Assembly (NCBI GenBank): GCA_943356495.1 | Contig: CALRFF010000001.1 | Coordinates: 158,864-191,011 of the forward strand | Direction: 5' to 3' | DNA: 32,148 nt | DNA from: Candidatus Nomurabacteria bacterium | Lineage (GTDB): Bacteria > Patescibacteriota > Minisyncoccia > Phycocordibacterales > SBAW01 | Shown here: in pieces, positions 3-20,699 of the stretch | Numbering within the stretch: position 1 is the stretch's first letter | Layout of the letters: each line of letters begins with the position of its first letter | Made by a program: the position numbers and the translations under genes | The notes under the pieces: generated by a model | The model's database searches: none | Told to the model about the DNA's origin: nothing | The model's input: the letters and a program-made list of their open reading frames with translations, nothing else

Positions 3-560
3 GCCCAGCCTAAAGAAGGCAAACTTATCTTCAGCGAAAAAGGCTTTGACGACAAAGAAAAGCGCGAGCTTATTGCCAACTACCAAGTCGGCGACGCGGT
101 AGACGGCGAGGTAACCGGTATGGTCGACTTCGGCGTCTTTGTTAAGCTCGAGGAGGGGTTGGAGGGGTTGGTCCACATTTCCGAAATAGACTGGGGCTTG
201 GTAGACGACCCGCGCCATTTCTTTAAAGTTGGCGACAAAACCCGCGTCAAAATAATTGACATCAAAGACGGCAAGGTAAGCCTATCGGTCAAAGCGCTTA
301 AGGACAACCCGTGGCAGGTCGCTTCGGCCAAGTACAACAAGGGCGACAAAGTGGAGGGCGTGGTTATCAAGTTTAACAAGCACGGCGCGCTTGCCAGCAT
401 CGAGGAGGGTATCGCGGGCTTGGTGCACGTCAGCGAGTTCGGTACCGACGAAAAACTAAAGGCGACCCTCGAGCTCGGCAAGCGCTATCCGTTTACTATC
501 TCCCTCTTTGACCCTAAAGAGATGCGCATGGCACTCGCCTTCGCCGGAGACAAAAAGTAG
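3..560 (+). CDS. rpsA: 30S ribosomal protein S1-like S1-domain protein, 5'-truncated by the window edge
   Basis: The frame is open from position 3 through ORF 120..560. Two S1 repeats (GEVTGMVDFGVFVKLEEGLEGLVHISEI; GVVIKFNKHGALASIEEGIAGLVHVSE). Confidence 0.85.
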   Translation, partial: AQPKEGKLIFSEKGFDDKEKRELIANYQVGDAVDGEVTGMVDFGVFVKLEEGLEGLVHISEIDWGLVDDPRHFFKVGDKTRVKIIDIKDGKVSLSVKALKDNPWQVASAKYNKGDKVEGVVIKFNKHGALASIEEGIAGLVHVSEFGTDEKLKATLELGKRYPFTISLFDPKEMRMALAFAGDKK

Positions 561-567
561 TCTGGGC

Positions 568-640
568 GAAAAAAGCCGTAAAAAAGATTGTTAGACTTGG
601 CCTAGCGGCCCGGAGTGCAATCTTTTTTGTTGCTTTTTTC
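568..640. terminator. Long interrupted inverted repeat between convergent rpsA and pth; probable bidirectional terminator with a repeat core in its loop
   Basis: gaaaaaagc 568-576 pairs with gcttttttc 632-640, and aaaaaagattg 580-590 pairs with caatctttttt 618-628. The 27-nt loop carries the motif shared with the lepA insert. Confidence 0.65.
594..618. repeat. Dispersed repeat core, copy 1 (gacttggcctagcggcccggagtgc)
   Basis: 22/25 identical to 20111-20135; all three differences are transitions. Confidence 0.8.
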
Positions 641-644
641 TTAG

Positions 645-1175
645 CTACTTAGCATTTATAACGGTTTGCGCGGTCTCTTTGCTTTCGGTAACGATAAGCT
701 CGATTGCTTCGCCCACCACTTTGCGCACCTTTTTTAGTTTTTCTTTGTCGGCTGGTTTAAACTTGCCCAACACAAAGTCGGTTATCTTTTCCCCCTCGGG
801 GCGGCGTAGTTTGCCGCTCGCGGTCGAGGGCGATATACCCACGCGCACGCGCACATAGTCGCGCGTCTTAAGCGCCTGCTCGATAGACTTAACCCCGTTG
901 TGTCCGCCGGCCGATGAGCCGAAAGAGATTTTGACCTTGCCGAGCGGCAAGTCGAGCTCGTCATGCACCACAATAAGCCGGCTGGCCGCTTTTTTGCTTG
1001 TAATAAGCTTCTTTATAGGCCCGCCGGAGTGATTCATATATACATTAAGCTCGGCTACCTTTACTTTGTTAGGTAATTTCTCTGCCAAGGCAGCGACAAA
1101 GTCTTTGCCGACGTTATGGCGCGTCCCTACATACTCTGTATTGGGATTTCCGAGCCCTACTAGTATCCAACTCAT
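645..1175 (-). CDS. pth: Peptidyl-tRNA hydrolase
   Basis: MSWILVGLGNP..YVGTRHNVG, VYMNHSG, LIVVHDELDLPLGKVKI..GSSAGGHNGVKS, RVRVGI. Start set at ATG 1175. Confidence 0.95.
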   Translation of the reverse strand: MSWILVGLGNPNTEYVGTRHNVGKDFVAALAEKLPNKVKVAELNVYMNHSGGPIKKLITSKKAASRLIVVHDELDLPLGKVKISFGSSAGGHNGVKSIEQALKTRDYVRVRVGISPSTASGKLRRPEGEKITDFVLGKFKPADKEKLKKVRKVVGEAIELIVTESKETAQTVINAK

Positions 1176-10878: not shown

Positions 10879-11430
10879 TTAGCTCTTTTGCAGTAGATAG
10901 CGTGTGCCTCCTGCAATGCCGGCAGCGGAGAGGCTAAGCAGCAAGAGTAGTCCTGCGGCAGTGCCGCCCGCGCCGGTATTAGGCGCACCCGGTGCTTCGG
11001 TTGAGGTGCCGAGTACTACCCCGCCGCCTCCGCCGACCCCACCACCTGTGGTACCGCCGCCGGTACCACTAAGGAGTACACAGTTACCGTTTTGTAGCCC
11101 GTAACCCGCCGGGATAACGGATTGCACGTCAGCGATGTTGGGGCAGATATCTATGATGTTACTGTTGCCCCCGCCGCCGCCTCCACCACCGCCGCCTGTA
11201 GTACCCCCGCCGCCGGTGGTACCGCCCGTCACCGTGCCGGTTAGGGTGCTGCCGGAGGTAACAGTGCCGGTGAGCGTACTGGAGCCGGAGGTTACCGTGC
11301 CGCTGAGCGTGCTGGTGGCGGGCGTGCCGGACGTACCGCTCGAGAGCGTGCCGGTCACCGTCGACTGCGCGAGTGCCGTCGTGGTCATGACCAGGAACGC
11401 CAGGCTAGTGATAATAATTCGTGTTTTCAT
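10879..11430 (-). CDS. Secreted Thr/Gly-rich surface protein with a C-terminal PxTG-TM-basic tail
   Basis: Signal MKTRIII...ALAQ, repeated (S/T)TLTGTVT(S/G)G, poly-Gly tracts, a C-x19-C module, then APNTG + hydrophobic helix + RYLLQKS. Confidence 0.75.
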   Translation of the reverse strand: MKTRIIITSLAFLVMTTTALAQSTVTGTLSSGTSGTPATSTLSGTVTSGSSTLTGTVTSGSTLTGTVTGGTTGGGGTTGGGGGGGGGGNSNIIDICPNIADVQSVIPAGYGLQNGNCVLLSGTGGGTTGGGVGGGGGVVLGTSTEAPGAPNTGAGGTAAGLLLLLSLSAAGIAGGTRYLLQKS

Positions 11431-11464
11431 GACTTTGGTTTGTAAGACTGGTAAGTAGCTGCCG

Positions 11465-12898
11465 TTAGATAGTCGCCGTCGAGGTCGCCGTTTGCGCCCA
11501 TGACTGCGCCGTGTAGGTCGTGCTGTACGAGCCGTTAGGCGTGCCCACCGGTATCTTGACCTCAATAGTGAGGTTAATCTGGCGGCCCGGAGTCGTTGCC
11601 GACGCGTCGCCGGTCAGGTAGAACCAGCCGCTGTAACCGTTGCCGGTAGCAATGATGCCGCTGTCGGTGGTCGATGCGTTGCTCGACTGCGGAGTCGAAA
11701 GCCGTATGTTGCCGTTGGCCGGGAAGCTTGTGGTGCTGCTCATCGCCCAGTCGCTAAAGCGGATACGAAACGCGTCCTCATTATCGGGGACCGTTACATG
11801 CATCACCCACTTCCAGCCGTCGGCGAAGTTGTTGTTTGCTGTCGCGCTTGCGTTAACGGTGTCAACACCGGTTACCGCGAGCGGCGTTGAGCTGGCGGTC
11901 GACTGCGTAAGGAACGTCTGGTCAGACGAGCTTGCGGTCGCCGTACCGTTGTTGCTGTGGATCTTGAAGTGATAGGTCGTGCCTTCGCTAAGGCCAGTGA
12001 GGGTTATCGAGTGCGTCGTGCTTGCGGTCGCATTAAGCGCCGATGCCGAGCCGTAGCTGGTCGTCGTGCCGTACACTACCTGACCGTCGGCCGCAATGTC
12101 GGTGGTCCAGTTAACGGTGGCCGTCGTGCTGGCAAGACCGGTGACCGTAATGTTGCTGATAACCGGAGTTGCAGGCGGTATCGCAACGGCCGTGTAGGTA
12201 TACTGGCTTGCCGAGCTGGTAGCGCTGGTGCCGCCCGTGGTAGTAACCGTTACATCAACCACGCCCGCCGTGGTAGTTGCGGGAGAGACCGCCGTAACTG
12301 ACGTCGCGCTGTTGACCACTACGCCCGTTGCGGGAGTCGCCCCGAACATAACCGAAGTGGCGCCGGTAAGGTTGGTACCGGTAATAGTTACCGCGGTACC
12401 GCCCGTTGTCGTGCCGCTGGTCGGCGTAATGCCGGTTACGGTCGGCGCATCAGGCAGTGTGGCAAAGCTGAGTACCGAACCGGGGTACCAGACGCCGCCA
12501 ACCTGCGACCACGCCGTAAAGTAATACGTCGTGCCGGCCGTTATAGGGAGGAGCCCCGCGGGGATAGTTGCCGATGAGAGAAGCGCCGAGAACGTCGTGC
12601 TCGATGCTACCGCCCCGATGTCGCCTGTCGAGTACACATCTGTCGGAAGTATCGGGCTCGCCCCGCCCACCGGAGTAAACGTGCTCGTAGACACCCAAAA
12701 TGCGGTGCCCGTAGCATCGGTGTCGCCGTTGAGCGCGTTAAGCGTAGCGTCGCTCACGGTAATAGCCGTTGCGGCCTGTGTCGTGACCTCCGGCGGCGCC
12801 GCAAATGCAAGCGGTGCCACAAAGGCAATGCCTGTAGCGCCCGCAAGCAACGCAAGCGCAGTTGTCGCAGAGAAAACCTGTAGAGATAATTTTTTCAT
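11465..12898 (-). CDS. Secreted multi-Ig-fold protein (FN3-like, IPT/TIG, FN3/purple-acid-phosphatase-N-like, unknown C-terminal beta domain)
   Basis: Signal peptide; PTVTGITPTSGTTTGGTAVTITGTNL (IPT/TIG); VNWTTD..ADGQVVYGTT.SYG...HSITLTGLSEGTTYHFKI (FN3-like). Confidence 0.8.
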   Translation of the reverse strand: MKKLSLQVFSATTALALLAGATGIAFVAPLAFAAPPEVTTQAATAITVSDATLNALNGDTDATGTAFWVSTSTFTPVGGASPILPTDVYSTGDIGAVASSTTFSALLSSATIPAGLLPITAGTTYYFTAWSQVGGVWYPGSVLSFATLPDAPTVTGITPTSGTTTGGTAVTITGTNLTGATSVMFGATPATGVVVNSATSVTAVSPATTTAGVVDVTVTTTGGTSATSSASQYTYTAVAIPPATPVISNITVTGLASTTATVNWTTDIAADGQVVYGTTTSYGSASALNATASTTHSITLTGLSEGTTYHFKIHSNNGTATASSSDQTFLTQSTASSTPLAVTGVDTVNASATANNNFADGWKWVMHVTVPDNEDAFRIRFSDWAMSSTTSFPANGNIRLSTPQSSNASTTDSGIIATGNGYSGWFYLTGDASATTPGRQINLTIEVKIPVGTPNGSYSTTYTAQSWAQTATSTATI

Positions 12899-13035
12899 AC
12901 TAATTTCTTCTAGATTGGTAATTAACTGATAACCGCGCACTCATCAACAAAAACACAACCGTACTTAAGAGCTGATGAGTCATAAGATACTAATGAAGAT
13001 GACAGCAGGCGCCTTTTTTGATATGTTTTCGGTAC

Positions 13036-14194: not shown

Positions 14195-16264
14195 ATGCCC
14201 GACGTTCCGGAGAAATTTCTTAAACCCTACGACCCCAAGGCTGTCGAGGCCTCTATATATAAGCAGTGGGAGGAGTCGGGTTACTTCAACCCAGACAACC
14301 TACCGGAGCAGGACGGCGAGCCGTTTACCATTATTATGCCGCCGCCCAATGCAAACGGTTCGTTGCACGCGGGACACGCGCTGTTTGTAACCTTACAGGA
14401 CATTATGACCCGCTTTGCCCGTATGCAAGGTAAAAAAGCACTATGGCTCCCCGGCGCCGACCATGCCGGTTTTGAAACGCAGGTGGTATACGAACGCCAG
14501 CTCGAAAAAGAGGGCCGCTCGCGTTTTGAAATGCCCCCCGAACAACTCTATAAAGAAATTATGGAGTTTACTCTGGCAAACAAAAGCTTTATGGAAGGCC
14601 AGCTCCGCCAGCTGGGCGCATCGTGCGACTGGTCGCGCGAAGTGTTTACCCTCGACGAGCACGTTATCAAAACTGTTTACAGTACATTTACCAAACTCAA
14701 CGACGATGGTCTCTTGTACCGCGGCTCGCGCATTGTTAACTGGTGCCCCAAACATCAAACCTCGCTCAGCAACCTCGAGACCGAGCGCATTAGCCGCACC
14801 GACAAATTGTATTACTTAAAATACGGTCCCTTTACTATCGCCACCGCGCGCCCCGAAACAAAGTTCGGTGACAAGTATGTGGTTATGCACCCCGACGACC
14901 CTCGCTACGCGCAATACAAAGACGGCCAGCAGCTGGAGCTCGAGTGGATTAACGGCCCCGTTACCGCCACCGTGGTTAAAGACGAGGCTATCGACCCCGA
15001 GTTTGGCACCGGCGTCATGACTATTACCCCGTGGCATGACCCTATAGACTTTGCTATTGCCGAGCGGCACAAACTCCCCTACGAGCAGGTCATCGACTGG
15101 CGCGGCAAGTTGTTGCCTATCGCGGGCGAGTTTGCGGGCATGAATATAAAAGACGCCCGCGCCAAAATTGTCGAAAAGTTGGAGGCCAAGGGATTACTGG
15201 AGAAAGTAGACGAGGCTTACGCGCACGAAGTGCCGGTGTGCTACAAATGCAACCGCGAGATAGAGCCGCAGGTTAAGGCGCAATGGTTTGTAAAGATGGA
15301 GCCTTTGGCAAAGCGCGCTATTGAGGCGGTTAAAAATGGCGAGGTAACAATACTAACCGAAAGCCATGAAAAGATTCTTTTACACTGGCTCGAGAATATC
15401 CAAGACTGGAATATCAGCCGCCAAATTGTCTGGGGTATCCCGATACCGGCTTGGCAAAAAGGCGAGGAGTGGAAAGTAAGTGTCGAGTCGCCGGGCGATG
15501 GTTGGACGCGCGACCCCGACACCTTTGACACATGGTTCTCCTCCGGCCAATGGCCGTTTGCGACGCTGGGCTACCCCGACGGTAAAGACTTTAAAAAATT
15601 CTACCCCACGACGGTGATGGAGACGGGTGCGGACATACTCTTTTTCTGGGTGGCACGTATGCTTATGTTGGGGCTGTACCGTACCGGCACGGTGCCGTTT
15701 AAAAACGTATACCTGCACGGCTTGGTGCGCGACGCCAAAGGGCAAAAGATGAGCAAAAGCAAAGGCAACGTTATCTCGCCCTTGACCGTAAGCGATGAGT
15801 ACGGCACCGACGCATTGCGCATGGGGCTTGTAGTCGGCAACACACCGGGCACCGACCTTAACCTCGACCCGAAGAAAATCGGGGCGTATAAAAAGTTTGC
15901 CAACAAATTGTGGAATATCACCCGCTTTGTGCTTGCGCAGGAAAACACGGGCGAACTCAAGCCCGAGTTGGTGGCGGAGTTTGACGCTATGCTCGAGGAT
16001 GTTACCAAAGACATCGAACAATACCGCATCTACATGGCTGCGGAAAAGCTGTACCACTATGTCTGGGACCGCTTTGCCGCCGAAATTATTGAGGAGAGCA
16101 AAGGCAAGCCGGAGTACGGCCCGACACTGCACTACATACTTGAACAATCACTTAAAGCGCTGCACCCGTTTATGCCCTTTATCACCGAAGAGATTTGGCA
16201 GAGTGTGGGCGGTAAAAAAGGCCTTATAATGGTCGAAGCATGGCCAACACGGCACTCATCCTAG
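14195..16264 (+). CDS. valS: Valyl-tRNA synthetase (short, 689 aa)
   Basis: PPPNANGSLHAGHA (HIGH), DHAGFETQ, DWNISRQIVWG, DTFDTWFSSG, KMSKSKGN. Confidence 0.97.
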   Translation: MPDVPEKFLKPYDPKAVEASIYKQWEESGYFNPDNLPEQDGEPFTIIMPPPNANGSLHAGHALFVTLQDIMTRFARMQGKKALWLPGADHAGFETQVVYERQLEKEGRSRFEMPPEQLYKEIMEFTLANKSFMEGQLRQLGASCDWSREVFTLDEHVIKTVYSTFTKLNDDGLLYRGSRIVNWCPKHQTSLSNLETERISRTDKLYYLKYGPFTIATARPETKFGDKYVVMHPDDPRYAQYKDGQQLELEWINGPVTATVVKDEAIDPEFGTGVMTITPWHDPIDFAIAERHKLPYEQVIDWRGKLLPIAGEFAGMNIKDARAKIVEKLEAKGLLEKVDEAYAHEVPVCYKCNREIEPQVKAQWFVKMEPLAKRAIEAVKNGEVTILTESHEKILLHWLENIQDWNISRQIVWGIPIPAWQKGEEWKVSVESPGDGWTRDPDTFDTWFSSGQWPFATLGYPDGKDFKKFYPTTVMETGADILFFWVARMLMLGLYRTGTVPFKNVYLHGLVRDAKGQKMSKSKGNVISPLTVSDEYGTDALRMGLVVGNTPGTDLNLDPKKIGAYKKFANKLWNITRFVLAQENTGELKPELVAEFDAMLEDVTKDIEQYRIYMAAEKLYHYVWDRFAAEIIEESKGKPEYGPTLHYILEQSLKALHPFMPFITEEIWQSVGGKKGLIMVEAWPTRHSS

Positions 16265-16932
16265 CAGCGCTCGGCGGTATACTCCCCGCACTACTATGGC
16301 TCGCATTTTGGTTGCTGGAAGACCGGTGCCAACCGGAGCCAAAAAAATACATCGTACTTTCTTTCATACTCGGCATGGTCGCGGTGCCTTTGGTATTGCC
16401 GCTCGAGCGCATGGCTATGGGCTACTTTGCCATCGGCTCGTTTAGTCTGCTTATGGCGTGGGCGCTGCTCGAAGAGGGTTTTAAGTTTATCGCCGCGTAC
16501 TTAGGGGGCTTAAGGTTTGCCGCCTTTGACGAGCCGCTCGACGGCGTTATCTACCTCGTTACCGCAGCACTCGGCTTTTCTGCGCTCGAAAACGCGCTGT
16601 TTTTGTACTCGCCGCTCATGCAAGGCGAGGTATTGCGCACGATTGTCACCGGCGACCTGCGTTTTATAGGCGCCACGCTCCTGCATACCCTTGCCTCGGC
16701 AACTATCGGTATTTCCATTGCGCTCTCCTACTACAAACCCGCGGCGGTACGCCGCATGGCGGCCATAGGCGGAGTTATCCTTGCGGTGGCGTTGCATACG
16801 CTCTTTAACTTTTTTATACTGGGACAAGGTGGTAATGCGACCTTTTGGGTATTCCTTTGCATCTGGTTCGGCATTATTGCGGCGCTGTTGATGGTAGAGC
16901 GGGTTAAACAACCAAGAGCTGACTATTGCTAA
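16240..16932 (+). CDS. prsW: PrsW-family intramembrane metalloprotease
   Basis: LEEGFK, ALGFSALEN, LLHTLAS, LHTLFN motifs; multi-TM; overlaps the valS end by 25 nt. Confidence 0.85.
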   Translation: MANTALILAALGGILPALLWLAFWLLEDRCQPEPKKYIVLSFILGMVAVPLVLPLERMAMGYFAIGSFSLLMAWALLEEGFKFIAAYLGGLRFAAFDEPLDGVIYLVTAALGFSALENALFLYSPLMQGEVLRTIVTGDLRFIGATLLHTLASATIGISIALSYYKPAAVRRMAAIGGVILAVALHTLFNFFILGQGGNATFWVFLCIWFGIIAALLMVERVKQPRADYC

Positions 16933-18866: not shown

Positions 18867-20699
18867 CTAGTCGCTCTTAACCATTTTAAGAAACACGTCC
18901 TCAGGGATGTTGACCTTGCCGCGGCCGAGCATCTTCTTTTTGCCCTTCTTTTGTTTTTCGCGGAGCTTCATTTTGCGGGTGATATCTCCCCCGTACATAT
19001 GCTGGGTAACGTCTTTACTGAGCGCCGAAAGCGTTTTAGACGACAGTATCCGGCCCAACGCTTGGCCTTGTATTTTGGTCGTAAACATTTGCCGCGGCAA
19101 AATGCCATATAGCTTTTCGACCGCGGCTTCGGCCTCTTCGTAGGCGCGATGCTCGGCCACTACCCTAGTAAAGGCGGGTACCGGCTCATCGGCGACCAGT
19201 ATGTCGAGCCGTACTACATGGGCCAAGCGCATCTCCCTCATTTGGTAGGAAACACTGGCATACCCTGAAGACGCGCTTTTTATCTTGTCGAAGAAGTTGC
19301 GCATAAGCTCGCGCAAGGGCATCACGACCGTAAGCTTCATGCGGCCTTCGGAAAAATTATCAGTAACTTCGGTTACTCCCTCGTGCTCAAAAAGAAGCGT
19401 GGCTATAGCCCCCACATACTCGGCGGGCAAAATAATCTCCGCCGCGACAAACGGCTCCCATACTTTTGCCACGTCTCCGTGGTCGGGGAAGAGCGACGGT
19501 GAGTACACCGTGCGGCGTTTGCCGTCGCGGGTTTCGACCTCGTACTGAATGCTCGGCGTGGTCACTACTAAACTCAAGTTCGACTCGCGGCGCAGACGCT
19601 CGGTCACTATTTCGAGGTGGAGCATACCCAAGAGCCCACAACGGAATCCGCGGCCGAGCACGCCGGAAGACTCTTCCTCAAACGACAGTGACGAGTCGGA
19701 GAGGCGCAGACGCGTGAGCGCTTGGCGCAGTGCGGTAAAGTCGTCTTGGCTTTCGGGGTACAGCGATGCCCACACGACCGGCTTCGGTTCGGCATAGCCT
19801 GCGAGTATATGCGTTTTACTGCGCGCGGCGCGCACGGTGTCGCCGACACGCGCGAGCCCCGGCTCTTTAATGCCGGTGACGATGTACCCTATCTCCCCCG
19901 CTACCAGTTTTGCAGCCGGTTTTGGCGCCGGAGAAAAGGTGCCCACCTCGAGCGCGGTAAAGCGCCGCTCGCCGATGGCAAACTCAAGCGCGTCGCCTTT
20001 GGCAAGCACGCCTTCGAATAAACGTAAAAATACAATGACCCCTTGATGGTCGGAGTATTGAAAGTCAAAGATAAGCGCTCTGGGTTCGGCAGAGGCTGAT
20101 GCGACGGTAGGGCTTGGCTTAGCGGCCCGGAGCGCCGGCGCAGCGGCCTCTGCCGAACCCTCTCGCGGTGGCGGCACGCGCTCGATAACCGCGGCAAGCA
20201 AGGCTTCTACCCCCGCTCCGCTGCGGCCGGAGCACAGGAGTATCTCGCTCTCTTCTATATCCAGCAGTCGGGCGACTTGTCCCTGCACGTCGGCAATGTT
20301 TGCCAACGGCGAATCTATTTTAGAAAGGGCGGGTATGATAATAAGCCCCTGCTCGCGGGCCATGCGCAAGGTGGTCAGCGTCTGCGCCTGCACGCCCTGC
20401 GTCGCGTCTACCAGCAATATCGCGCCCTCAACGGCGGTAAGCGCGCGGGAGACCTCGTAGCTAAAGTCGATATGGCCGGGGGTGTCTATAAGGTTAAGGA
20501 TGTACCCTTTGTACTCCATGCGCACCGGCTGCATTTTTATGGTGATACCGCGCTCGCGCTCAAGCTCCATCGAGTCGAGCACCTGCTCCTTCATTTTGCG
20601 GGCCTCGATGGTGTGGGTAACCTCAAGAAAACGATCGGCAAGCGTTGACTTGCCGTGGTCTATATGGGCAATGATGGAGAAGTTGCGTATCTGGTGCAC
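18867..20699 (-). CDS. lepA: Elongation factor 4 (LepA)
   Basis: IRNFSIIAHIDHGKSTLADR, ERERGITIK, DTPGHIDF, GFRCGLLGMLHLEI, KDVTQHMYGGDITRKMKL. Confidence 0.98.
   Translation of the reverse strand: MHQIRNFSIIAHIDHGKSTLADRFLEVTHTIEARKMKEQVLDSMELERERGITIKMQPVRMEYKGYILNLIDTPGHIDFSYEVSRALTAVEGAILLVDATQGVQAQTLTTLRMAREQGLIIIPALSKIDSPLANIADVQGQVARLLDIEESEILLCSGRSGAGVEALLAAVIERVPPPREGSAEAAAPALRAAKPSPTVASASAEPRALIFDFQYSDHQGVIVFLRLFEGVLAKGDALEFAIGERRFTALEVGTFSPAPKPAAKLVAGEIGYIVTGIKEPGLARVGDTVRAARSKTHILAGYAEPKPVVWASLYPESQDDFTALRQALTRLRLSDSSLSFEEESSGVLGRGFRCGLLGMLHLEIVTERLRRESNLSLVVTTPSIQYEVETRDGKRRTVYSPSLFPDHGDVAKVWEPFVAAEIILPAEYVGAIATLLFEHEGVTEVTDNFSEGRMKLTVVMPLRELMRNFFDKIKSASSGYASVSYQMREMRLAHVVRLDILVADEPVPAFTRVVAEHRAYEEAEAAVEKLYGILPRQMFTTKIQGQALGRILSSKTLSALSKDVTQHMYGGDITRKMKLREKQKKGKKKMLGRGKVNIPEDVFLKMVKSD
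20082..20160. repeat. In-frame hairpin element in lepA carrying repeat core copy 2 (20111-20135)
   Basis: Perfect 15-bp inverted repeat gggttcggcagaggc 20082-20096 / gcctctgccgaaccc 20146-20160 around a 49-nt loop. Confidence 0.85.

Follow-up and report, generated by a model that had tools for sequence, protein, structure and literature searches.

In a 32,148-nt stretch of the genome of a Candidatus Nomurabacteria bacterium (contig CALRFF010000001.1, positions 158,864 to 191,011; hereafter the window) two small hairpin elements were found, one in frame within lepA and the other between a gene for an S1-domain ribosomal protein and pth, and both belong to a dispersed family of hairpins that we call family A. 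Copies of this family share a 29-nt tip, in nearly every copy G-T-[A/T]-[A/G]-G-A-CTTGGCCTAGCGGCCCGGAG-C-G-C, which is carried on a stem of ~22 bp whose arms differ from copy to copy and are complementary within each copy. This architecture is the reverse of that of repetitive extragenic palindromic (REP) elements, miniature inverted-repeat transposable elements (MITE) and Rickettsia palindromic elements (RPE), which keep the stem or the overall sequence. Comparison with empty sites in relatives showed that the inserted unit is the whole ~75-nt hairpin and not the 25-nt core, and sequence comparisons indicate that the tip is constrained as nucleic acid, even within an open reading frame (ORF) and after a flip of orientation. 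The family appears undescribed: a keyword search of the literature gave no description of it, and a search with the sequence string gave unrelated primer matches only.

The two copies and the genes that carry or flank them are located in the window as follows.

20082..20160, + strand: hairpin element of family A, lepA copy, whole unit of 79 nt, motif strand antisense to lepA
20082..20106, + strand: 5′ arm of the lepA copy, with the outer 15 nt perfectly paired and the inner part imperfect
20107..20135, + strand: conserved tip (apex) of the lepA copy, GTAGGG-CTTGGCTTAGCGGCCCGGAG-CGC, from the core match, the family consensus and pair counts
20136..20160, + strand: 3′ arm of the lepA copy, from the inverted repeat and the fold
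568..640, + strand: family-A hairpin, intergenic copy, 73 nt, from the inverted repeat, the fold and a covariance-model match
590..618, + strand: conserved tip of the intergenic copy, GTTAGA-CTTGGCCTAGCGGCCCGGAG-TGC, from the sequence, the core match and the family alignment
120..560, + strand: S1-domain ribosomal protein gene, 3′ part (Pfam S1; C-terminus aligned with L207 and L209)
645..1175, − strand: pth (peptidyl-tRNA hydrolase; the protein collection lists 176 aa), with its stop codon 4 nt past the hairpin
18867..20699, − strand: lepA (EF4), intact, 610 aa, with ~19-20 residues (…GSAEAAAPALRAAKPSPTVASASAEP…) added to a linker by the element

The lepA copy is bounded by a perfect 15-bp inverted repeat (20082-20096, GGGTTCGGCAGAGGC; 20146-20160, GCCTCTGCCGAACCC), as a first-pass annotation of the window had reported; by a repeat finder its arms extend to 26 nt (88% complementary) around a 27-nt spacer, and those of the intergenic copy (568-590 and 618-640) reach 23 nt at 87%, again with 27 nt between. 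Thus the two copies have unrelated arms, loops of equal length (27 nt) and a common core. Direct reading confirmed that ggcttggcttagcggcccggagcgc (20111-20135) and gacttggcctagcggcccggagtgc (594-618) are identical at 22 of 25 positions, and that GTAG at 20107-20110 and TTAG at 591-594 precede the core, all of which that annotation had stated. The common 20-mer, CTTGGCYTAGCGGCCCGGAE..., precisely CTTGGCYTAGCGGCCCGGAG, occurs at only these two sites of the window, both on the + strand, and two 20-mer matches were reached in none of 100 shuffles of the window. Both hairpins are far more stable than shuffled sequence, with folding energies of −63 kcal/mol (z −5.3) for the + strand of the lepA copy (−53.5 for its − strand) and −33.4 kcal/mol (z −3.9) for the intergenic copy. 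The intergenic copy lies in the 84 nt that separate the convergent S1-domain gene and pth, beginning 7 nt from the end of the former; it has an A6 tract in its 5′ arm and a T6 tract in its 3′ arm, and by these tracts it looks like a putative bidirectional terminator.

The core was scanned as an exact 20-mer against one genome per GTDB species (596 Gb), which gave at least 120 loci, 117 of them patescibacterial, where ~2 would be expected by chance according to our own arithmetic. The caveats attached to the first-pass annotation, namely that the match might be fortuitous or that only two copies might exist, do not hold against this number and the shuffles. Two alphaproteobacterial matches (L034, L038) lack a hairpin, and all others among the matches listed are from Patescibacteria, with labels that include Kaiser-, Adler- and Nomurabacteria, Paceibacterota, Minisyncoccia, ‘Peribacteria’ and Saccharibacteria, the last with Nanosyncoccus and ruminant-gut isolates; some of these automatic labels are doubtful, as L001 is labelled Saccharibacteria, yet its ValRS is 81% identical to that of Kaiserbacterium. 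Several genomes have multiple copies (at least 9 in CAZROM01, at least 8 in JBEKSI01 and at least 4 on the 805-kb chromosome OY970216), so that a carrier genome has roughly 4 to 10. A covariance model built from a 77-copy alignment (A1) recovered both window copies (20087-20155, 68.3 bits, E 5e-15; 570-638, 72 bits), gave no other copy in the lepA neighbourhoods of 84 relatives (640 kb), and found about ten additional copies in 860 kb of carrier loci (~1 per 90 kb). Hence the family is patchy, with about ten copies per carrier. Not all of the additional copies are intact: L064 and L084 represent a subfamily variant, in L012 half of the core is replaced, and in L081 a nested 16-nt palindrome splits it. 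Rfam at its gathering threshold reported only 7 tRNAs in the window, and its best sub-threshold matches on 540-670 were chance miRNA and sRNA models with E > 1; a known RNA family was rejected, since no match was obtained at either the gathering or the E-value threshold. A phage or plasmid origin was likewise rejected, since IMG/VR gave 0 matches and PLSDB none.

The gapless alignment A1 is described by one nested structure, in which 94% of cells are paired and 21 pairs have changed on both sides; among the 22 outer stem pairs, 21 have done so. Its covariation score is 0.70, compared with 0.16 in shuffles (0 of 500 reach 0.70) and 0.12-0.16 with slid partners; the copies of A1 were chosen for pairing, and it is these two controls which show that the pairing is copy-specific. 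In the tip, a CUU/GAG helix and a CG bulge lead to a GGCC/GGCC mini-hairpin closed by a UAGC tetraloop, with invariant U·G pairs; the lepA copy folds in this way as GGCU/UAGC/GGCC plus the bulge and the CUU/GAG helix, and in L023 (4133-4201) the mini-stem is compensated to GGGC/GCCC. The mini-hairpin had been noticed in the two cores of the window and is supported by pair counts. The bases before the core are G (97%), T (97%), A (77%) or T (17%), A (79%) or G (18%), G (99%) and A (98%), and 61% of copies have a G·A or A·G mismatch at −7:+4. A reading of the tip as a K-turn was rejected, because by a hand check the bulge and the G·A geometry do not fit. Whole hairpins cluster at ~73-80 nt with GA flanks on both sides, and in about half of the copies an A-run (5′ arm) and a T-run (3′ arm) adjoin an inner G+C stem.

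Some further features of tips and stems were observed. Copies of one genome may have a genome-specific inner stem, e.g. TCGMAAG…CTSAGA with a possible tandem G·A, and well-paired outer stems that are unrelated; loci with a shared inner stem are L033, L058, L074, L090, L098, L099, L102 and L105 in CAZROM01, L030, L037 and L063 in JBCLFD01, and L054, L055 and L091 in OY970216. A 55-nt hairpin module ending in AAGTRCTCTTGKGGTG directly follows the GGAGCG of the family-A tip at two unrelated loci (L116 2054-2108 and L120 5279-5333), and the same module occurs alone in an ORF-like region of L107 (749-800). In L081 (1210-1290) a 16-nt palindrome, TCCGCCAGCTGGCGGA, is nested within the core, and in L070 (1252-1284) a 33-nt palindrome lies between GTAGGA and CTTGG; it seems that further small hairpin elements are drawn to the tip loop. 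In L033 (1785-1919) and L057 (2440-2600) the 5′ arm plus tip is partially duplicated in tandem.

The stems are kept paired on one strand only. In copies selected by Watson–Crick pairs only, motif-strand stems contain 91 G·T and 16 A·C (p = 6e-14), and 16 is close to the number expected from unpaired stem ends. The asymmetry is unchanged in antisense copies, with G·T:A·C of 20:3 in in-ORF antisense copies and 20:2 in intergenic copies antisense to both neighbours, so selection does not act on the fold of the host mRNA. Genes of the loci were called by simple ORF heuristics, and many loci are orthologous, which makes the orientation and GC-skew tests partly non-independent; on this basis 43 upstream genes share the strand of the copy and 37 do not, 19 in-ORF copies are sense and 17 antisense, and the coding-base share on the motif strand is 0.47. 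An orientation tied to host transcription was rejected on these values and on the like folding of antisense copies. Among the 99 carrier loci (L001-L120 and the window), with the same non-independence, the motif strand is the C-rich strand in 65 (65:34, p = 0.002) and shows no bias relative to the coding strand (44:55), and skew is uncorrelated with the coding strand; this C-rich-strand bias hints at an orientation preference relative to replication.

At the S1/pth junction, the gap is 84 nt in the window versus 2 and 5 nt in L207 and L209 (Pth 81% identical), and consequently both arms as well as the tip are extra. The ValRS/PrsW junction has the element in five genomes and is empty in L122; the window itself has a ValRS gene (14195-16264) overlapping PrsW (16240-16932) by 25 nt, and at the five occupied junctions the ValRS frame stops on the TAA or TAG of the tip. 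The PrmC linker, from PRPETE to LDLCAGSG, has 16-19 residues natively and 38 or 43 with the element (+60 to +75 nt). The empty sites come from relatives too distant to judge target duplication. Two other modes of origin were tried and rejected: insertion of the core into a pre-existing terminator hairpin, as the S1/pth gap is only 2-5 nt in relatives, and arms as an inverted copy of the target, which fits LepA and is contradicted by S1/pth and PrmC. Hence the description of the two window copies as a small motif sitting in hairpins stood for its variable arms and its genic and intergenic sites, and has to be changed as to the unit, which is the hairpin itself.

Orthologous copies keep the same tip on unrelated stems, both at ValRS/PrsW (ValRS 80-88% identical) and in prmC (64-68%), and the sister copies L027 and L045 differ by a compensatory double change from GG/CC to AA/TT. 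Constraint on the tip was measured in three prmC genes which were picked by protein similarity alone (63% identity) and not by the core: two have the exact core and one has a single tetraloop change, and tip codons for the same residue are identical in 7 of 7 cases, compared with 22% of such columns elsewhere (P ~3e-5). Moreover, the tip peptide is kept in long-linker PrmC homologues, 40 of 71 of which have LG[LRQ]AARSA, and 2 have the antisense reading ALRAARPS. It is the identical codons together with this peptide on which the nucleic-acid constraint is based.

The PrmC/HemK linker is also a second hot spot of insertion. Long linkers are present in 71 of 95 homologues (P0241-P0360), 48 of the 71 with family-A-derived peptides and 23 with other recurrent inserts, such as …VSQRDGAR.SKFSAENYA.PK… and …SEWSGRPKGGGPRIFARG…, probably members of additional hairpin families. 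In L032 (2083-2151) and P0319 the tip, with its core intact, points the other way from that of L018, L039 and L064 at the same PrmC site; either the tip was inverted by recombination of the two arms, or the site was struck twice.

With respect to genes, only 6 copies are in divergent regions, meaning that copies sit where at least one gene ends. Nineteen of 115 (~17%) are deep in ORFs, with at least 80 open codons on each side, and in-ORF hosts include LepA, PrmC/HemK, MgsA, IF-2, ValRS and O-antigen-ligase-like proteins; a dispersed, RPE-like family with variable arms, found between genes and in frame in essential genes, is what the first-pass annotation had proposed. A4+/T4+ tracts occur in 53% of non-ORF copies versus 26% of deep in-ORF copies (p = 0.04). 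That annotation had also suggested looking for an IS200/IS605 or RAYT-type transposase (RAYT, REP-associated tyrosine transposase) next to the copies: no transposase recurred among the 150 nearest-neighbour ORFs (186 Pfam families, housekeeping on top) or occurred in the window, and no RAYT/Y1 gene was present in these ORFs, the recurrent neighbour clusters or the window. Recurrent neighbours (ValRS, PrsW, GatA/GatC, SmpB) recur only through synteny, and a linked transposase or partner gene was rejected, as neighbour clustering and Pfam scans gave housekeeping genes only. No complementarity of the loop to another locus of the window was found.

The lepA copy is a case of an in-ORF insertion. 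The linker of the window LepA reads PPP-REGSAEAAAPALRAAKPSPTVASASAEPR-ALIFD, with 28-29 residues between PPP and ALIFD where insert-free relatives have 8-11, which agrees with the excess of ~20 aa first noted; an alignment of LepA orthologues, proposed along with that observation, placed the insert outside the closest relatives P0002, P0003 and P0006 (82-84% identity), which lack it. When aligned to T. thermophilus EF4 (5imq), the extra residues fall between the G domain, just past its end, and domain II. The best relatives of LepA and Pth carry the names Patescibacteria, Kaiserbacteria, Adlerbacteria or Paceibacterota, by which the window is from a Paceibacteria-type genome of the candidate phyla radiation. 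Since the copy is antisense to its gene, has no A/T tracts and is translated as a ~19-residue linker, it is best seen as a tolerated insertion that is read through as a surface linker.

The same LepA linker, between G domain and domain II, is a hot spot of unrelated in-frame palindromic inserts. About half of 120 LepA relatives have a linker 8-45 residues beyond the native 8-11, with LepA linkers of this hot spot at L122 10001-11833, L123 6001-7845, L204 2233-4083 and L205 701-2542 and further ones in L125, L165, L203, L157, L182, L149, L174 and L199. A second loop family, family B, with the loop CCTTGGCAGCTCGCMGCG, has variable arms and both orientations, and was seen only in four fetched LepA loci; other inserts have AAGGTCRGACCTT arms, or form a hairpin with 27-bp arms and a 5-nt loop.

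As the best explanation overall, and one that we hold to be moderately probable, family A would be a hairpin mobilised in trans and then maintained, with its tip recognised by a factor that we infer. The comparisons show that a gene-less hairpin without an adjacent transposase enters sites as a whole unit and survives mainly at gene 3′ ends and, in frame and translated, in tolerant protein linkers. After insertion, the tip is under nucleotide-level constraint and the stem is kept paired on one strand in either host orientation. In the model built on this, the active form would be a single-stranded fold of the motif strand, whose tip a trans-acting factor may bind. Such a factor would be limited to some lineages, and it may mobilise the element, use it, or both; the patchy distribution suggests movement between lineages, be it of the factor or of the element. 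Intergenic copies with A/T tracts would probably serve as bidirectional intrinsic terminators as well. We slightly favour RNA as the active form: the U·G pairs are invariant, there are G·A mismatches, and the A/T tracts resemble those of terminators and are depleted in deep in-ORF copies; single-stranded DNA is nearly as probable, given the independence from host transcription, the lack of a promoter, the C-rich-strand bias of 65:34 and the palindromes nested in the tip loop.

Several points weigh against this explanation. An RNA form needs transcription antisense to hosts such as lepA, and no −10-like box, and hence no promoter of its own, was found at a fixed distance from the element; a single-stranded DNA form needs exposure of the apparent leading-strand template (C-rich in 65 of 99). 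Copies of one genome share the inner stem and have unrelated outer stems, which is hard to obtain by simple copying and divergence. The lepA linker is only ~57 nt longer although the hairpin has 79 nt, for which a loss of native codons or a later outward extension of the palindrome is possible. Moreover, gene conversion among copies could leave the same pattern at the tip as purifying selection, and the invariance of the tip is overstated by sampling on exact core matches among the loci listed; of the additional copies recovered with the covariance model, some are degenerate (L012, L081). The factor acting in trans is itself only a postulate.

Among other explanations, non-mobile structured RNAs, either cis-acting stem-loops at 3′ ends (a terminator or stabiliser with a protein-bound tip) or small-RNA genes, with accidental in-ORF cases, are rather unlikely. 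The strong covariation, the invariant U·G pairs, the G·A mismatches and the GA/GA flanks at the base are RNA-like, the polarity of the A/T tracts would give U-runs after the inner hairpin in both directions, and only 6 copies are in divergent, promoter-only regions; but orientation is random, it is the motif strand that folds, also in copies where this strand is antisense to all genes nearby, there is neither a promoter signal nor an Rfam match, and the empty sites and the 17% of copies in ORFs argue for insertion. Insertion is accommodated if family A is a purely selfish, RPE- or MITE-like palindrome that once spread and is now decaying, with a tip conserved by recent common origin, and the insertion polymorphisms, the translated in-frame copies in linkers, the degenerate and nested copies, the patchy distribution and the lack of a demonstrated function are all consistent with this. 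We nevertheless consider it unlikely: orthologous copies in hosts of 63-68% identity keep the tip exactly, including synonymous sites, and the stems turn over wholly and yet remain paired, with G·T and almost no A·C, whereas neutral decay would give equal numbers.

An insertion of only the 29-nt tip, whose 3′ end then folds back and primes copying of the flank so that the arms are an inverted target duplication, would explain why conservation stops exactly at the closing pair −6:+3, why hairpin-bearing LepA linkers are about one arm shorter than whole-hairpin insertion predicts, and why copies of one genome share tip and inner stem with unrelated outer arms, and G·T is the commonest polymerase mispair. 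We regard this as very unlikely, because there is no room for a native arm at S1/pth (2-5 nt in relatives), PrmC grows by up to 75 nt, a whole hairpin, and the compensatory changes of L027 and L045 imply later selection on pairing. Slightly less probable still is a REP/REPIN-type element handled by a RAYT (HUH Y1) transposase, the reading to which the first-pass annotation had been led. Family A resembles such elements as a hairpin repeat that is mostly extragenic and at gene 3′ ends, with GTAG before the core of the lepA copy and a strand-specific folding which suits a transposase acting on single-stranded DNA. That reading is not upheld: GTAG is found in at most ~18% of copies and there within the tip, the stems are unconserved, a genome has about ten copies, neither Y1 nor other transposases recur among neighbours, and L055 has two copies of opposite orientation 3 kb apart, which argues against strict dependence on the replication strand.

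Comparison with known systems places the mobilised and maintained hairpin between several of them. REP elements and REPINs have a conserved GTAG (or CGTC) tag outside the palindrome, a conserved stem and hundreds of copies, and the RAYT gene is often flanked by REPs. Family A is like REP, BIME and REPIN elements in being short extragenic hairpins at gene 3′ ends, and would share with them an ability to act on transcript ends and recognition as a single-stranded fold; it differs in lacking a GTAG/CGTC tag outside the palindrome and in having 17% of copies inside ORFs. RPEs are small non-coding palindromes without a known transposase, which occur between genes or, in frame, within essential genes, whose proteins then carry them as surface peptides, and which are retained at orthologous sites; LepA, PrmC, MgsA, IF-2 and ValRS carry translated in-frame copies of family A in the same manner. 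However, family A belongs to another phylum, has a shorter unit (~75 nt), and combines a conserved tip under nucleotide-level constraint inside ORFs with a free stem, whereas RPE families are defined by overall sequence; the two are compared here by description, and membership of the RPEs is not claimed. MITEs have conserved terminal inverted repeats that match a parent insertion sequence, and a target-site duplication. Unlike them, family A has arms that differ between copies, and no parent insertion sequence was seen in the neighbourhoods examined.

Rolling-circle and CRESS-virus origins have an invariant nonamer loop on a variable stem, and integron attC sites have one folded strand, a sequence-free stem and conserved boxes at the base. 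The invariant loop, the covarying stem and the importance of one strand's fold are common to these origins (and in part to attC) and to family A, in which, however, the loop is a structured mini-hairpin of 27 nt and not of 9-13 nt, conservation is at the tip where attC has its boxes at the base, and the copies are chromosomal, dispersed and partly in genes with no linked Rep, relaxase or integron integrase. As for intrinsic terminators, which are marked by a G+C-rich hairpin with a U-run directly behind it, an inner G+C hairpin at gene 3′ ends with an A-run to one side and a T-run to the other is seen in about half of non-ORF copies (inner hairpin plus T-run in 53%, judged from the letters alone), including 568-640 and not the lepA copy; the differences are that the family-A stem runs ~10 bp past the T-run, that its 29-nt tip is invariant across classes, and that copies occur also inside ORFs, where they have no tracts. 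TIGR-Tas systems are tandem stem-loop arrays of phages and of the candidate phyla radiation (CPR), beside a Tas/Nop protein, with 8-12-nt non-complementary spacers and box C/D-like motifs (PMC12045711), and share with family A hairpin units in parasitic bacteria with short conserved motifs and variable flanks (PMC12045711). Family A was rejected as a TIGR array unit, being single and dispersed, with 22-bp complementary arms and no recurrent neighbour gene.

A large part of bacterial diversity is patescibacterial, and these organisms have tiny genomes and are difficult to study. A tip that is identical across classes, in and outside genes, must be read by something, and the presence or absence of the element over thousands of genomes could point to the factor by phylogenetic profiling. 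More tentatively, as a possibility to which we give well under even chances, family A may be a strand-specific hairpin read via its fixed 29-nt structured tip, spread among CPR lineages and selectively kept at about ten chromosomal sites per genome, essential genes in either orientation included, as a cis-site or small RNA for an unrecognised CPR machinery of mobilisation, replication/repair or RNA processing, and would then be no decaying repeat. The element explains length variation of conserved proteins such as LepA and PrmC in Patescibacteria, and in-frame palindromic insertion, hitherto a curiosity of Rickettsia, appears common in this phylum. Annotation should mask or model the family; for genetic tools in cultivable Saccharibacteria, its copies offer candidate terminators or landing sites.

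Two minor observations concern neighbouring genes. A gene for an RRM_1 RNA-binding protein lies beside prmC in L212 (1-231) and is found in 3 of the 150 neighbour ORFs; its position next to a frequent host gene is probably synteny. In the window, an ORF on the − strand (10879-11565, no Pfam match) contains G+C-rich direct repeats at 11019-11230, of CCGCCGCC type and 3 × 44 nt, and adjoins a gene for a TIG/fn3-domain protein (11465-12940).

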